Positions 23,270 to 31,736 of a DNA stretch of 64,000 bases are shown here, one piece after another; position 1 is the first letter of the stretch, and each line of letters opens with the position of its first letter. This DNA comes from an uncultured Candidatus Poseidoniales archaeon (lineage in GTDB: Archaea; Thermoplasmatota; Poseidoniia; Poseidoniales; Poseidoniaceae). Made by a program: the position numbers and the translations under genes. The stretch lies in NCBI GenBank assembly GCA_905182185.1, contig CAJJAP010000004.1:5773-69772 (forward strand), in the 5' to 3' direction. Under the pieces are notes generated by a model. It saw only the letters and a program-made list of their open reading frames with translations, had not been told where the DNA came from and searched no databases.

Positions 23270-23965
23270 GTGTTGTCACTAGCGCCATTCATGAACAGAC
23301 CTGCTTTGTATGTACTTACAATCGGCATCGGTTTGTACATCAGTGCTACTGGCCTGAATGGAATCATTCCGGACCATTGGGCTGAATGGCCAGTCAATAT
23401 TTGGTGCTGGTCTGTATTTGCATATATATTCTATAAGACCACTCGAAAGGAGCGTATTGAGATGCTGACTGTGTTGGCATTTGCCACCCCAATGGAACTA
23501 TTTTTTAGTGAAGTTTGGCTAATCTATGAATACCAACGAGGACTAATGCCCCTATTCGTTCCAGTGGGTCATTATTTCTTATTTGACCTGGGCAGGATTA
23601 TCGCCAATAAGATGAGAGAGAACCTCGCCATAATTTGCTTGACCCCATTTATTCCACTTGTCGCTTATGGCGTTTATAGCGGTGGCGATACGTCTGCGTT
23701 ATTCCTCCTGATACTGGTACTCGCATTCACAAAATGGGGACCTCAACCTCGATTATATGTTGCAATGGCTTGGGCGGCCTTAGCTATGGAATTATGGGGC
23801 ACACACTTGACCAATTGGACATGGGCTAACGAAGTCCCATGGACGGGACTAACCGCTTGGAATCCACCGCTATTGGTTGGTGCATTCTATTGTGTTGGAG
23901 ATTTATTGGTCAACCTTAGTGTTGCCAAGTTTGAAAGAGAAGTGACGGCTGAGGTGGTAGTATGA
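23270..23965 (+). CDS. Hypothetical multi-pass membrane protein
   Basis: 231-aa ORF with about 7 hydrophobic segments; overlaps the ferredoxin start (ATGA). Confidence 0.7.
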   Translation: MLSLAPFMNRPALYVLTIGIGLYISATGLNGIIPDHWAEWPVNIWCWSVFAYIFYKTTRKERIEMLTVLAFATPMELFFSEVWLIYEYQRGLMPLFVPVGHYFLFDLGRIIANKMRENLAIICLTPFIPLVAYGVYSGGDTSALFLLILVLAFTKWGPQPRLYVAMAWAALAMELWGTHLTNWTWANEVPWTGLTAWNPPLLVGAFYCVGDLLVNLSVAKFEREVTAEVVV

Positions 23966-24294
23966 CCACCAGTGACGAGTTGGCGACGAGACGAGCGGCT
24001 GAGGCTCTGGCCATCCGTACATCTCTAAATCGTCAGCGCGGAGTGCAGCGCGCTAATACAAAGGGTGGTGAAGGAACTGTTGCCTATGTTACTGCAGAGA
24101 AATGTATTGGCTGCGATCAATGTACAATCGTCTGTGATGATAATGCAATTGACATATACAAAGTAGAGATGGCCAGTCAATTCATCAAAGTGGAAAGTAA
24201 TCGCAAGGCCAAGATTATTCGCGATGCTTGTACTGGCTGTAGATTGTGCGTACTCGCTTGTCCTACAGACGCTATAACAATGATTGATTTGTGA
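23962..24294 (+). CDS. 2x[4Fe-4S] dicluster ferredoxin with N-terminal extension
   Basis: CIGCDQCTIVC and CTGCRLCVLACP. Confidence 0.9.
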   Translation: MTTSDELATRRAAEALAIRTSLNRQRGVQRANTKGGEGTVAYVTAEKCIGCDQCTIVCDDNAIDIYKVEMASQFIKVESNRKAKIIRDACTGCRLCVLACPTDAITMIDL

Positions 24295-24303
24295 GGAATT
24301 ACC

Positions 24304-24606
24304 ATGACAAAAGATGATGATGAAGAAGTTCAAAGATTCGGAGGAGAATTCGGACCTTACCGCAAGGAAGGGACTTCAGGAGTAAGCCTCGGAACATTCA
24401 AAACATTGGTCTGGACTTCCAATATAGGTGGACTTTTACTATGTGCATTATCCCTTGAAATGCTATTTGTTCGTAAAATGTTTGGCTGGGGATTATTGGC
24501 CCTAATGGCTGCAGTTGCCATCGCTTTATTCCCCTCAAATTATGAAATCGTTGGAATGGGTGATGAATCTATCACCTCCACCGATGATCAAAACACACAG
24601 GATTGA
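24304..24606 (+). CDS. Small 2-TM hypothetical protein
   Basis: GAGGA RBS; two hydrophobic helices; last gene of the operon. Confidence 0.65.
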   Translation: MTKDDDEEVQRFGGEFGPYRKEGTSGVSLGTFKTLVWTSNIGGLLLCALSLEMLFVRKMFGWGLLALMAAVAIALFPSNYEIVGMGDESITSTDDQNTQD

Positions 24607-24736
24607 TTTGTCGCAAATACAATTACAATACTGACTCCTTGTCACCGATTAATCAAGTCAAATGGTGAACTCGGCAAACTATAGTGGATGAGTAGCATAG
24701 GGACCAAGAAGTGGCTATTAAAGTTGAATCGAATCA

Positions 24737-25966
24737 TCAAACAGATGATTCATTAGCATACTTTATTGCTTCAGCACCCATTGCCAACATCGACAATTCT
24801 GCTACTAAAGCATGCCATCCCTTTGCATGCTCTCCATAGAGATGACCCACTTCAGATGAATCAAAGAATTCTGCACTAGGCGAGTTCAAATTATCCATAT
24901 CACCCTTCTTAGCATTTATTCTATAGAACCAGGATGCGGCTTCACCATCGACCAAATAAACAACAGGTTCAACTGGTGCTCCACCTTCTTCTGTTAGAAG
25001 AGTTGGAACTCCTTCTTGAATTAAGAAATTTTCAACATCTGCACCGCCTTTGGAATACATTAGTTTCTTCATTTTTCTATTGGACAGTTCAAGTAACTGC
25101 TCTCCCCGCTTGACCGCCATAATACCGAGTCCATATGTTCCTCTATCATTTTTTACAAAAACAACAGGCTCTCTTTCGATTCCAAGGGATTCATATTTTT
25201 CTTTAATCTGTTTAATAAATTCGTCTACTTCTGCCGCTAATTCAATCCTGCAATTCTCTTTTTCAAGACATTTATTCTTTGAAACAAACCAATTCGCCAT
25301 CAAATGCCAACTATCAATTTCTAACAATTGTGCCATCTCATCAACATATTGCTGCAAACAAGCATAATGTTCTGATTTCCTACGGCGATGCCATCCCATA
25401 CTCGGAGGCGGGCTCACATTATTGGCAGACAATCCAGGCACTATCCCTTCAGTAAGATCATTATTTAGCAATATCAAGCAAGGTCTTTCCCCTTCTACGA
25501 ATAACTCTTCCTTCCCATTTTCAAGTTTTAATTCAACTGTTGACAATTGCAACGGACCTGAAATCCCTGCCAAAGAACCATGAGCAGATAATTCAGGTGA
25601 ACCAACTGTACATCTGAAACCGGAAAGGTGTATTAAACGTTGAATAGTCGCTACATTCTCGACATATCCTGCATTCCGAGTATGTGATTCAGGGTACAGA
25701 TGAACCCATTCACATTTGGTTTTAAGTCTTAAAATATGATTTTTAAGAAGATTTGCAAGATGTGGTTCATCCTCCTTTGAAACATTGTTGAATCCGGCTG
25801 GAAAGTGATTGGCATCAACAACTGCGACCTTCCATCCAGCATCCCTCACATCAACACTACCATAGATTGGAATTGGCACTTCACTGCGCTTCTTTGCCAT
25901 CCATGCTGTGATCTGTTCTCTCTTAGATTCAAGTATTTGTGAGTATTCATGCACGTAATTCATCAT
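24737..25966 (-). CDS. gshA: Glutamate--cysteine ligase (GshA, PF08886-type ATP-grasp family)
   Basis: PIYGSVDVRDAGWKVAVVDANHFPAGFNN, ILLNNDL, VKNDRGTYGLGIM, IQEGVPT. Confidence 0.85.
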   Translation of the reverse strand: MMNYVHEYSQILESKREQITAWMAKKRSEVPIPIYGSVDVRDAGWKVAVVDANHFPAGFNNVSKEDEPHLANLLKNHILRLKTKCEWVHLYPESHTRNAGYVENVATIQRLIHLSGFRCTVGSPELSAHGSLAGISGPLQLSTVELKLENGKEELFVEGERPCLILLNNDLTEGIVPGLSANNVSPPPSMGWHRRRKSEHYACLQQYVDEMAQLLEIDSWHLMANWFVSKNKCLEKENCRIELAAEVDEFIKQIKEKYESLGIEREPVVFVKNDRGTYGLGIMAVKRGEQLLELSNRKMKKLMYSKGGADVENFLIQEGVPTLLTEEGGAPVEPVVYLVDGEAASWFYRINAKKGDMDNLNSPSAEFFDSSEVGHLYGEHAKGWHALVAELSMLAMGAEAIKYANESSV

Positions 25967-27744
25967 ATCACCTCATCCAGTAAATCAATTGCTGTTCCCG
26001 AACGCTTACTTCTACCACCATCAACAATATGCATTGCTTCAAACAATCCCAAACCTATCGCCAAATCAGGTTGATCTTTGAAAGCACCACTAATAAGTGG
26101 GTACTTACTCATTATTTGCTGCGCTCTTCCATCTAATTGTTGTAGCATATTGTGCAACAACTTAGGAGATGTTGCTGTACCGGCTGGTAATTTTGGTCTA
26201 CGTACAATTTCTGCTGGTAATTTAGTCAAATCAGCAGCACGGCGCAAGGCTATTTTCTCTTCAAATGAAGGTGGAAGGCGCCACTTCATCGGTAACTTAT
26301 GTGATGCTTGGCGGTGCGACTTGCCGAGGAATGGAACTCTAACTTCAAGAGAATGCGCCATAGAATGTCTATCGACTAAGCGTAATTGGAAATTACTCAA
26401 CTGCCCACTATCCAATTCAAATTGTAAGAAGTCATCTAATGAAGAGGTATGGGCAGTAGCTGAATGGTCATTTGAATAATAATAATCTCCAATAGGTAAT
26501 TGACCATTTTCAATGATTGATTTCGATGGGTGGTCCATCATATCAAAGCGAGATTGAATCACACTAGAATGATGCTCTAGATCTCTATAACGTGGATACC
26601 CTGCATGAAGTTCATCCGCTCCTTGACCGCATAATCCAACTGTTACCGATTCTGACATTTTCTCAAACAGTGGCTGGAAGAATAGAACAGTTACATCCAA
26701 ATCTTCACCATGCCAAGCCAAATCAGGTAACATTTTATCAAACGAATCCTCTTGTAAAATATGTTGATGATGTTCTAACTCAAGGCTTGATGCTACTAAC
26801 TCAGCAGCCTGCCAGTCAGGGTTTTCTTCACTCTCTGCAACCGTCCAACATGCAGGAACGGGATTACCACTTCTTTGGGCTGCTTCGTGAGCAACTGCGG
26901 CAACTAAACTAGAATCCAGTCCCCCGGAAAGTACTATGCCAACCGGCACATCTGACATCAACCTCTCTTCAACACTAACAACGAAAGATTCCAGTAACTT
27001 ACTAGCCTCTAAATCTGGATTCCATGTATCTGCAGGTTCTACCTTCTGCCTTTCCACGGTTGCTTTACCAGTTAATACTGCGCAACCATTGTTGTCAAGA
27101 CTCCATGTCTCAACTGTTCCTGGCTTTATTTGTGCAACATCCTTCAGCAGTGTTGTTCCATCTAAAGGGTACTCCCAAGCCAACCTTGCCACCAATGCAA
27201 GTTCATCGATTTGGGGTATATGTCCTTCATGGGCCCTAAGGGCTTTGGCTTCACTTGCAAATAGTAGACTACCATCAACCTCGGTCCTCATCAATGGCTT
27301 AATCCCCATAGGGTCTCTAGCCAATAGCAATTGCTTATCTTTTGGATTCCATATCGCTATCGCATACATTCCATTGAGTTGAGAGAGCCATTGCGCATGT
27401 TGTTTAGCGGAAAGTTTACCGTTATTTGTCGCTAATGCATTCTCATGTAGAGCCAGTATGGTCTCACTATCACCATTTGTAGTCCATGGATAGTGAGCCT
27501 GATTTTTGCGGAGATTTAGATGATTGTAAATCTCTCCATTGGCGATCAAAATATTTCCACTCTGCGCAGATATCGGTTGGTCACTTCCACTGATATCAAC
27601 AATCGCCAATCGAGTGTGTCCGAGTGCTATGCTTTCATCACTCCAAATGTCATTGCCATCTGGGCCTCGATGACGCATCAACAGATTCATTCGTTCTATT
27701 ACGGCGGAATCGGGGTTTCCAAACATACCACCAATACCGCACAC
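25963..27744 (-). CDS. asnB: Asparagine synthase B-family glutamine amidotransferase
   Basis: GTG start at 27744 exposes the Ntn Cys (CGIGG); HRGPD, GHTRLAIVD, NGEIYN, RDPMGIKPL, LSGGLDSS, GQGADEL. Confidence 0.9.
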   Translation of the reverse strand: MCGIGGMFGNPDSAVIERMNLLMRHRGPDGNDIWSDESIALGHTRLAIVDISGSDQPISAQSGNILIANGEIYNHLNLRKNQAHYPWTTNGDSETILALHENALATNNGKLSAKQHAQWLSQLNGMYAIAIWNPKDKQLLLARDPMGIKPLMRTEVDGSLLFASEAKALRAHEGHIPQIDELALVARLAWEYPLDGTTLLKDVAQIKPGTVETWSLDNNGCAVLTGKATVERQKVEPADTWNPDLEASKLLESFVVSVEERLMSDVPVGIVLSGGLDSSLVAAVAHEAAQRSGNPVPACWTVAESEENPDWQAAELVASSLELEHHQHILQEDSFDKMLPDLAWHGEDLDVTVLFFQPLFEKMSESVTVGLCGQGADELHAGYPRYRDLEHHSSVIQSRFDMMDHPSKSIIENGQLPIGDYYYSNDHSATAHTSSLDDFLQFELDSGQLSNFQLRLVDRHSMAHSLEVRVPFLGKSHRQASHKLPMKWRLPPSFEEKIALRRAADLTKLPAEIVRRPKLPAGTATSPKLLHNMLQQLDGRAQQIMSKYPLISGAFKDQPDLAIGLGLFEAMHIVDGGRSKRSGTAIDLLDEVI

Positions 27745-28010
27745 AGTAAAAGGTGTAAACCACCTCCTTTTCAATGGTTGTAAATAACCATGAATCAATT
27801 CACAGTAATACACTTAGACTGGCATCACCAAAGAGGCCATCTAAACATAGTAAATACAAGAGCTAAGACCGAAATACCAAAAAAGATGTAATATGATGTT
27901 TGAGGTGGGTCATTGGATTCGTTTTCCTCAGACATGGTAGTTCACTATTCCAAAGGGGAGAGCAACCACCATTTCAACATATTGAGGAATATGAATGGCT
28001 TTTTGCTAAA

Positions 28011-28652
28011 TCATAGCAAACCAATGAATGGGTCAAACAGTAAAATTGCGCATAATGGAATTAACATCATTGTGGCATTGTCATCTATCCATCGCAGTCG
28101 AGGCCATTCACTTATCATACAAAGTGGCGCCATTATTGGAATTAACCATAGTGGAGTCGCAACTAAATTCCAGCATGCTAACCAAATAATTGTAATAGCC
28201 AGAGTTGAATATATCATGACCTGCTTATCATCAAATCCTTTTCTTCTCAACTCTCCCATCAAAGGATCGCCTAACGATAGAGAAAGAACAAGGGGCCAGA
28301 TATATTCCTTAGTAGGCGCCATCAAAAATGCCAACCCGATTCCAATAGCACCCCATGCTAATGCTGAAACTTGGTGAGCCTCGTATTCTCTTTGACCGAA
28401 TATTGTTATTGAAAATTTAAGTCTAACCGCCTCAGCAGCGAGCATTGAAAGTATCAATGCAGAAACTAATTGAGGAAGTTCTAGTCCTACAAATTCTGCA
28501 CATTCCTCACCATATTCAAAGTAAATAAATGGAATGAAGGATAAACTCAAATGAATTACTCTTCTCAAGATATGCCCATAAACCCCACCCTTGGATTGTT
28601 GTATCGGGTCTGTCATCGCAACTTGTCCATTATTTTCATTCATAGCATTCAC
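28011..28652 (-). CDS. Membrane protein resembling CTP-dependent isoprenol/dolichol kinase (cytidylyltransferase family)
   Basis: RRVIHL, SLSLGDPLMGELRRK, DDNATM and several TMs; family assignment tentative. Confidence 0.5.
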   Translation of the reverse strand: MNAMNENNGQVAMTDPIQQSKGGVYGHILRRVIHLSLSFIPFIYFEYGEECAEFVGLELPQLVSALILSMLAAEAVRLKFSITIFGQREYEAHQVSALAWGAIGIGLAFLMAPTKEYIWPLVLSLSLGDPLMGELRRKGFDDKQVMIYSTLAITIIWLACWNLVATPLWLIPIMAPLCMISEWPRLRWIDDNATMMLIPLCAILLFDPFIGLL

Positions 28653-30181: not shown

Positions 30182-31736
30182 ATGGCATCCACCGAAGAAC
30201 GACTCAAAGACCTGCGTAATCGTAAGGCAAGAAGTGAAGCAGGTGGCGGTCAAGCACGTGTTGATTCTCAACATAATCGTGGTAAAATGACTGCTCGTGA
30301 GCGCATGGAATTACTTCTCGATGATGGTTCATTCCAAGAAATGGATGCTCTTGTTGAGCACCGATGTAAAGATTTTGGAATGGAGAAAAATATTATTCCA
30401 GGTGATGGAGTAGTAACTGGCCATGGAACAATAAATGGACGCGAAGTATTTGCATTTGCTCAAGACTTCACCGTTTATGGTGGTTCACTAGGAGAAATGC
30501 ATGGCCTGAAAATCTGTAAAGTATTGGATATGGCTCTAAAAACAGGTAGACCTGTTATTGGAATGAATGATTCTGGAGGAGCTCGAATACAAGAGGGAGT
30601 AGCTAGTCTAGGAAGTTATGCTGAAATCTTTTTCAGAAATGTAAGATCCTCTGGAGTCATCCCTCAAATCTCGGTGATAATGGGGCCATGTGCTGGTGGT
30701 GCAGTATATTCACCAGCGATAACAGACTTCGTAATAATGGTCGACAAAACTGCACATATGTTTATCACTGGACCTGAGGTTATCAAGACGGTAACAAATG
30801 AAGAAGTTTCTTTTGAAGACCTCGGAGGTGCGATGACGCATGGTAGTAAATCGGGAGTATCACATTTCACAGCAGTAAGTGATGAAGAAGCAATACAACT
30901 GGCAAGAGAACTAGCAGATTTACTTCCTCAGAATAATATGGAAAAGCCACCGATTAGAAAAACATCTGATCCAAAAGATCGGATATGTGAGAAATTGGAT
31001 ACTATTATTCCAACAGAATCCAACAAACCCTACGATGTAATTGATGTAATCAATGAAATCGTTGATGATGGAGCATTCTTAGAAGTTCAGGCAGATTGGG
31101 CAAAGAATATCGTAATCGGTTTTTCACACTTAGGTGGAAATACAATTGGTGTTGTCGCAAATCAACCAAAATTCCTTGCAGGTTGCTTGGATATTGATGC
31201 GAGTGACAAAGCCGCAAGATTTGTAAGGTTTCTGTGATGCTTTCAATATCCCAATTCTAACTTTGGAAGATGTCCCTGGTTTCTTGCCAGGTACTAGCCA
31301 GGAATGGGGTGGTATTATTCGACACGGTGCAAAATTATTGTATGCATATGCAGAGGCAACTGTGCCTTTGTTGACAGTGATATTGAGAAAGGCTTACGGG
31401 GGTGCGTACGACGTTATGTCCAGCAAACATATCCGTGGCGACTACAATGTTGCATGGCCGAATGCTGAACTAGCGGTCATGGGTGCTGATGGTGCTGTAG
31501 AAATTATTCATCGTAGGCGTATCGCAAATTCGCGTAATGCAGAAGAAGAGAGAACGAGATTAACCGAAGATTTCAACGATACTTTCGCAAATCCATACAA
31601 GGCTGCAGCTCTGGGATATCTAGATGATGTCATCGAACCTAGTGAGACTCGAAGTAAGTTGATTCGTTCTCTTGAGATGCTAATGGATAAAGAAGAATTA
31701 AGACCAGCAAGAAAGCATGGTAATATTCCACTTTGA
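30182..31736 (+). CDS. pccB: Acyl-CoA carboxylase/decarboxylase carboxyltransferase subunit (PccB/MmdA family), +1 frameshift near 31230
   Basis: [36 protein letters not shown]. Removing one T from AGGTTTCTGTGAT restores RFCDAFNIP and joins the two ORFs. Confidence 0.9.

Follow-up and report, generated by a model that had tools for sequence, protein, structure and literature searches.

In proteobacteria, glutamate-cysteine ligases of the PF08886/TIGR02049 family (structure 3K1T) are encoded in a tight two-gene operon, gshA-gshB, together with a second ATP-dependent enzyme, the ATP-grasp protein GshB, whose gene lies downstream. The family is the rare "Acidithiobacillus ferrooxidans" type of GshA, first shown in that species. 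Here the analysis concerns a locus in which a ligase of the same family has a different partner. It lies in a stretch of 64,000 nucleotides (nt), hereafter the window, of contig CAJJAP010000004.1 from a 63%-complete Marine Group II (MGII; order Poseidoniales) genome, and comprises gshA and, upstream of it, asnB1, which encodes a glutamine-dependent amidotransferase of the AsnB family (AsnB1); the archaeal ligases moreover form a clade of their own. The asnB1-gshA pair is an old two-gene operon specific to Thermoplasmatota, and the reading favoured here, with a probability put at about 0.35, is that its product is an amidated gamma-glutamyl thiol and that AsnB1 has a second role as well. The initial annotation of this DNA had proposed an amidated gamma-glutamylcysteine (gamma-Glu-Cys) as the product; the conservation of the unit, the non-canonical AsnB and the missing GshB speak for that proposal, and the retention of asnB1 without gshA and its status as the sole AsnB copy speak against it.

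The pairing logic of asnB1-gshA is the same as that of the asnO-ngg system of Sinorhizobium and Pseudomonas, in which a peptide ligase and an AsnB-family amidotransferase that amidates a dipeptide carboxylate make N-acetylglutaminylglutamine amide (NAGGN), and the NAGGN AsnO model TIGR03104 is among the matches of AsnB1. The ligase of that system is, however, the GNAT-ATP-grasp protein Ngg (TIGR03103) and not a member of PF08886, and both the gene order and the predicted product differ. To our knowledge, no gene is known for the amidation step of glutathione amide. This compound of purple sulfur bacteria (Chromatium) shows that gamma-glutamyl thiols with an amidated C-terminus have a precedent (cited in PMC7278568). 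It differs in being a tripeptide amide from bacteria that have GshB. The gamma-glutamylcysteine system of haloarchaea likewise relies on an archaeal glutamate-cysteine ligase with no glutathione synthetase, but its ligase, of the GCS2 type, is unrelated to PF08886 and is not coupled to an amidotransferase. A review of archaeal thiols (PMC7278568) does not list the PF08886 type in its survey of InterPro families. The AsnB/LtsA proteins of B. subtilis, Listeria and C. glutamicum resemble AsnB1 in carrying the label "asparagine synthase" and in keeping the glutaminase and PP-loop motifs without the Asp-binding D and R, and they act on a peptidoglycan stem-peptide carboxylate rather than on free aspartate (PMC8554201). 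In contrast to these, AsnB1 also replaces Glu-348 and belongs to a separate Thermoplasmatota clade, and archaea are without peptidoglycan containing meso-diaminopimelic acid (mDAP).

The conservation of the pair was analysed in 121 Poseidoniales genomes within a set of 401 Thermoplasmatota genomes, about 300 of them outside the order. gshA was found in 59/59 genomes of family f1 (MGIIa), 2/2 of f2 and 17/59 of f3 (MGIIb), and an asnB1 orthologue in 59/59, 1/2 and about 40/59, respectively. In all 78 Poseidoniales genomes in which both were found, covering the three families, the two genes were adjacent on one strand with a spacing ranging from an overlap to ~190 nt, so that the linkage noted in the initial annotation is conserved in the sampled Poseidoniales wherever both genes were found. 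Within the order gshA never occurred without asnB1, the apparent exception (G001) being a gshA on a 1.5-kb contig. The pair sits in a syntenic block of ~15 kb that extends across the order and includes the Rieske/cytochrome b operon, a ferredoxin cassette, gshA, asnB, a gene for a 213-amino-acid (aa) protein and MeaB, and continues with genes for the methylmalonyl-CoA mutase B12 subunit, a carboxyltransferase and a biotin carrier. Because synteny in the order is this high, the pairing within the order alone is weak evidence of a functional link.

Outside Poseidoniales, among the ~300 other Thermoplasmatota genomes, PF08886 was found only in families f29 (12/19 genomes) and f48, which belong to another, high-GC class. 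In 12 of the 13 f29/f48 genomes an asnB orthologue lay directly upstream of gshA on the same strand, with 37–40% identity to that of the window and with none of the Poseidoniales neighbours around the pair; in the thirteenth (G320) the asnB1 orthologue was on another contig. For the two genes of the pair together, the identity was about 35–39%. The pair was kept while its surroundings were rearranged, which is moderate, not strong, evidence of functional coupling. The initial annotation had allowed that the adjacency could be chance; its conservation across two deep lineages indicates more than that. Full-length AsnB1-type matches were confined to lineages carrying the archaeal PF08886 clade. 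Of 21 bacterial PF08886 loci, proteobacterial and other, none had an asnB within 8 kb, and 13 had a true gshB directly downstream (PF02955 scores of 238–250 bits). In eight of the f29 loci (within L140–L151), a conserved gene of ~300–480 aa without a Pfam match stood just downstream of gshA in convergent orientation, its real frame being identified by a third-position GC of 0.76–0.92.

The ligase of the window scored 337.2 bits with PF08886 (cut-off 25) and 292.2 bits with the NCBIfam equivalog TIGR02049, 1.7 bits short of the cut-off of 293.9, an f29 orthologue reaching 409.2 bits with the same model. It matched the PDB entry 3K1T ("glutamate--cysteine ligase GshA") over residues 17–367 with an E value of 7e-58 and carried 25/25 family-invariant columns in a 36-sequence PF08886 alignment in which it formed the first row. 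The window protein is of the PF08886 type and not of the haloarchaeal GCS2 type to which the initial annotation had likened it. PF08886 is a small family, with 1073 clusters at 50% identity among 1.8 billion representatives, and membership in it suggests that GshA ligates glutamate and cysteine to gamma-Glu-Cys. In a tree of 184 PF08886 sequences (FastTree only), the Poseidoniales and f29/f48 ligases were sister clades with a support of 96 within a mostly bacterial family. Since archaeal GshA is monophyletic, the asnB1-gshA pairing had a single origin or was moved as one block. Independent origins, which would have argued strongly for coupling, were also considered and were rejected because of the single archaeal GshA clade in the same FastTree analysis. 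In two instances the gshA gene itself departed from the usual arrangement. One MGIIb genome (G081, contigs C16 and C24) has gshA twice, and a position beside asnB is known for just one of the copies, and in the g17 genomes G029, G039, G049, G105 and G119 the ligase matches came in two pieces, with residues ~128–154 diverged or missing.

AsnB1 has the domain composition of its family (Pfam GATase_7/GATase_6 and Asn_synthase). It passed the broad model TIGR01536 with 335.7 bits (cut-off 267.1) and remained below the cut-offs of the AsnB equivalog PRK09431 (258.3 bits, cut-off 499) and of TIGR03104 (220.9 bits, cut-off 570.1). An active-site alignment of 23 AsnB1 sequences with E. coli AsnB (annotated K-12 record), with which phmmer matches to PDB entries 1CT9 and 6GQ3 agreed, showed that Cys1, R49, N74, E76, D98, the PP-loop SGGLDS, D351, E352 and K449 are retained; the invariant columns of the glutaminase and PP-loop are, in Met-1 numbering, C2, R50, N75, E77, D99 and S235-G-G-x-D239-S240. 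In 23/23 sequences, four residues were replaced, with Q at E348, Q at D384, L at R387 and F at R325 in E. coli numbering (R325 being Met-1 numbering and R324 in Cys-1). E348, D384 and R387 correspond to E364, D400 and R403 of the human enzyme. The motif SGEGSDE is replaced by CGQG[AS]DE in AsnB1, and GQG[AS]DE was present in 116/120 of its closest database relatives. In human ASNS, the amino group of the substrate is held in a pocket made up of E364, D367 and D400, and both E364A and E364Q are inactive (PMC6748925). AsnB homologues whose target is mDAP of the peptidoglycan stem peptide, and not aspartate, are marked by their lack of the Asp-binding D and R (PMC8554201).

A tree built quickly by maximum likelihood united the AsnB1 sequences in one monophyletic, Thermoplasmatota-specific clade (37 rows, support 99), and E. 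coli AsnB, the only proven reference, grouped not with AsnB1 but with an accessory protein, AsnB2 (support 95, with a caveat for long branches). The phylogeny that the initial annotation had called for thus places AsnB1 apart from the sole proven asparagine synthetase in the tree. That annotation had taken a grouping with true asparagine synthetases, together with single-copy status, as speaking against its proposal; AsnB1 is indeed the only copy in most genomes and does not group with E. coli AsnB. The name "asparagine synthase" should, judging from these features, be regarded as an uncertain label for the AsnB1 clade and used with caution. AsnB2 itself is a 477-aa protein of G000, the genome of the window, encoded on contig 5 at ~209.8–211.3 kb (L002:1084-2517, minus strand). 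It has the canonical Glu-348 and Arg-387 and a Glu at 384. It was unmatched at E <= 1e-40 in the other 120 genomes of the order and is probably a recently acquired accessory gene.

These results bear on the alternative that AsnB1 is a divergent housekeeping glutamine-dependent asparagine synthetase, with gshA sharing its operon because of regulation or history and the pathway ending at unmodified gamma-Glu-Cys, as in haloarchaea. The TIGR01536 score above the cut-off agrees with such a role, and B. subtilis AsnB homologues without the Asp-binding residues complement an E. coli asparagine auxotroph (PMC8554201). It is, however, difficult to reconcile with the replacement, in all 23 sequences, of four residues linked to beta-aspartyl-AMP formation or aspartate binding, one of them by the same change (E364Q) that kills the activity of human ASNS, or with the position of AsnB1 away from E. 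coli AsnB in the tree and its PRK09431 score far below the cut-off. Nor does it account for why only this pair outlasted the rearrangement between two classes. The same active site is compatible with a further alternative, namely that the carboxylate amidated by AsnB1 has nothing to do with the GshA product and belongs, for example, to a cofactor, a cell-envelope component or an N-acyl amino acid, and that asnB1 and gshA are adjacent for co-regulation only. Position 348 is occupied by E, D, L, Q or Y in other Thermoplasmatota AsnB paralogues, a variety suggestive of many substrates in the superfamily, and the nearest outgroup of AsnB1 (P0320, P0322 and P0323, with a GNGSDE motif) is also without the glutamate. 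This alternative is countered by the adjacency that was kept in ~90 genomes of two classes while other synteny was lost, by the identical lineage distributions of the AsnB1 and archaeal GshA clades, and by the observation that gshA is never without asnB1.

Several findings weigh against an amidated gamma-glutamyl thiol as the product of the pair. The single origin of the archaeal ligases makes the conservation of the pairing one evolutionary observation and not two. MGIIb genera g13, g14, g16, g20 and g21, which are without gshA, keep asnB1 in the same syntenic slot, and the asnB1 of these genera is full length, with all motifs and with no lengthened branches. In these asnB-only MGIIb genomes, neither of the other ligase types, PF04107 (GCS2 type) and PF04262 (E. 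coli type), was found. In G003, a closed genome of the same genus as that of the window, and in G045, AsnB1 is the only Asn_synthase-family gene. Genes for glutaredoxin-like and GST-like proteins are present irrespective of gshA, and no AsnB-GshA fusion was found among the longer proteins, which is weak evidence.

The retention of AsnB1 where gshA is gone means that AsnB1 has a GshA-independent role, and, since asnB1 outlives gshA and no other ligase was found, amidating the GshA product is not its only job. Because the gshA-positive G081 nests among gshA-less MGIIb genomes, gshA must have been lost more than once. The nested phyletic pattern still allows the usefulness of GshA to depend on AsnB1. 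A functional shift of AsnB1 after the loss of gshA was also considered and rejected, as three columns differ and none of them is at a known active-site position. Retention without gshA is equally what would be expected if AsnB1 acted on another carboxylate, an alternative that is on the whole unlikely.

The supply of asparagine is informative with respect to the housekeeping alternative. G003 and G045 have AsnRS and are without GatB and AsnA, so that AsnB1, as their sole AsnB-family gene, is their only visible asparagine route. The succession from both genes to asnB only and then to neither, over shrinking MGIIb genomes, would likewise fit an accessory gene being lost first and a biosynthetic gene later. 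On the other hand, G027 and G023, closed or near-closed MGIIb genomes, have AsnRS with no AsnB or AsnA, which indicates that asparagine auxotrophy is tolerated in the order. Taking both sides into account, a housekeeping asparagine synthetase is less likely than not as an explanation of AsnB1, and only a little less probable than the favoured reading.

Under the favoured reading, that the pair makes an amidated gamma-glutamyl thiol, GshA would join glutamate and cysteine to gamma-Glu-Cys, and without GshB the pathway would either stop there or continue differently. In bacteria, GshB activates the Cys carboxylate of gamma-Glu-Cys and adds glycine; in the archaea its place is taken by AsnB1. AsnB1 has the features predicted for a glutamine-hydrolysing, adenylate-forming amidotransferase that is without the acidic and arginine residues for aspartate binding and activation, and its most likely mechanism would be to adenylate a carboxylate other than that of free aspartate and to amidate it with ammonia tunnelled from glutamine. 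Where GshA is present, the favoured substrate would be gamma-Glu-Cys or a precursor of it, giving an amidated gamma-glutamyl thiol, and the second role of AsnB1 could be a low or compensated asparagine-synthetase activity. A more specific version, in which MGII and the high-GC Thermoplasmatota make an undescribed thiol, gamma-Glu-Cys-amide or an isoglutaminyl form, with AsnB1 capping the molecule instead of GshB, is put forward as a tentative possibility. Some of the database records of high-GC Thermoplasmatota come from soil or groundwater samples.

The genomes were also searched for other genes of thiol metabolism. No gshB was found in the order: the PF02955 matches that the window genome and 118/121 Poseidoniales genomes do have reach no more than 36–76 bits, compared with the benchmark of 238–250 bits for true GshB. 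Both of the PF02955 matches that were checked are RimK-family ligases, and such weak matches occur with or without gshA. A hidden GshB was rejected on the RimK identity of the two matches checked and on the occurrence of such matches irrespective of gshA; the absence of gshB from the window, already remarked on in the initial annotation, extends to the order. A search of five Poseidoniales genomes for PF04107 gave no match. EgtD (PF10017) was found in 0/121 genomes, which rules out gamma-Glu-Cys as a precursor of ergothioneine in MGII. An extra GST_N-like frame of 216–219 aa was observed in both MGIIa genomes sampled (G003:C1:509432-509647 and G014:C3:304469-304672) and in none of three MGIIb genomes; from its sequence, it is a possible candidate for a thiol-dependent enzyme that tracks MGIIa.

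Beyond the amidated thiol itself, the neighbouring respiratory genes had given rise to the proposal of a redox link, in which the CCG/HdrD module (PF02754) fused to subunit IV would reduce the disulfide of that thiol and so couple it to the quinone pool. In its support, all Poseidoniales loci examined have the pair next to the respiratory block, and CCG domains are established as acting on disulfides in Hdr. The whole 15-kb block is syntenic across the order, however, so the adjacency says little. Moreover, the subunit IV-HdrD fusion was kept at full length and ~57% identity in 6/6 gshA-less loci examined (L049–L054), and the f29/f48 genomes with the pair have no fusion but separate frames for subunit IV (~240–280 aa) and CCG (~750–780 aa), far from the pair. 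In addition, the three-gene ferredoxin cassette in between changes strand: most MGIIa have it on the strand of gshA, whereas the window and MGIIb have it on that of cytochrome b. The fusion thus persists without gshA, the pair exists without the fusion and the cassette flips; redox coupling through the fusion, as suggested in the initial annotation, is very improbable and was rejected from the co-occurrence data. The pair has no demonstrable functional tie to the Rieske/cytochrome b-HdrD complex. The convergence of the pair on the respiratory operon, which the same annotation had described, applies here and in the nearest relatives but not in most MGIIa, where the ferredoxin cassette is on the strand of gshA. 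In most MGIIa loci (L035–L040 and L057–L097; compare window 23270-24606), the cassette lies 24–50 nt downstream of gshA on that strand and may be co-transcribed with asnB-gshA.

Marine Group II, of which no member has been brought into pure culture, ranks with the most abundant archaea in surface waters of the ocean. An amidated gamma-glutamyl thiol, if it is made by the pair, would be a new member of a small list of cellular redox buffers, and the locus would provide the first gene for such an amidation step together with a chemical marker to look for in seawater. Should AsnB1 instead be a real asparagine synthetase, the enzyme would work without residues thought to be indispensable. By the pattern of gshA loss, MGIIa is clearly set apart in its physiology from many MGIIb lineages.

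The features of the locus are listed in Table 1. The open frame of AsnB1 spans 25963-27813 on the minus strand (open reading frame (ORF) coordinates), and the start was placed at the GTG at 27744 because the codon that follows encodes the N-terminal nucleophile Cys of class-II amidotransferases. The resulting N-terminus reads V/M-CGIGG, and M/V/L-C-G/A opens all 31 AsnB1 orthologues examined. At the junction with gshA (GTG ATA TGA TGA ATT), the TGA stop of asnB and the ATG of gshA share the ATGA at 25963-25966, in agreement with the 4-nt overlap noted initially; the gap between gshA and the respiratory operon likewise has the length first given. Metatranscriptome contigs from three studies cover asnB1 and gshA at 95–100% identity, and one of them spans the asnB1-gshA junction with no mismatch. 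Contigs of this kind also span the convergent gap and the upstream gene, and they show presence in RNA libraries, not transcript ends. The intergenic region upstream of asnB probably holds the promoter predicted for the pair.

Table 1. Coordinates of the asnB1-gshA locus, given as positions of the window.
Feature	Position	Strand	Description
AsnB1, glutamine-dependent AsnB-family amidotransferase	25963..27744	-	593 aa, GTG start then Cys1
GshA-like ligase	24737..25966	-	409 aa, PF08886/TIGR02049 family
Intergenic region upstream of asnB	27745..28010	-	266 nt, A/T-rich TTATTTA box and GGAGGTG motif
Convergent gap between gshA and the last ferredoxin-cassette gene (24304-24606, +)	24607..24736	.	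130 nt

In addition to the pair, two further features of the surrounding block were observed. In all Poseidoniales loci examined, the gene for the 213-aa protein without a Pfam match, which in the window is at 28011-28652 on the minus strand, separates MeaB from asnB; the f29/f48 loci do not have it, so it does not belong to the pair. Two ORFs on the plus strand of the window, at 30182-31237 and 31263-31736 with a 25-nt gap, share the carboxyltransferase (PF01039) between them and cover positions 2–324 and 336–493 of the PF01039 profile. Adjacent separate pieces were present across the order in almost all of the loci examined, which makes the split look conserved and not a sequencing error.

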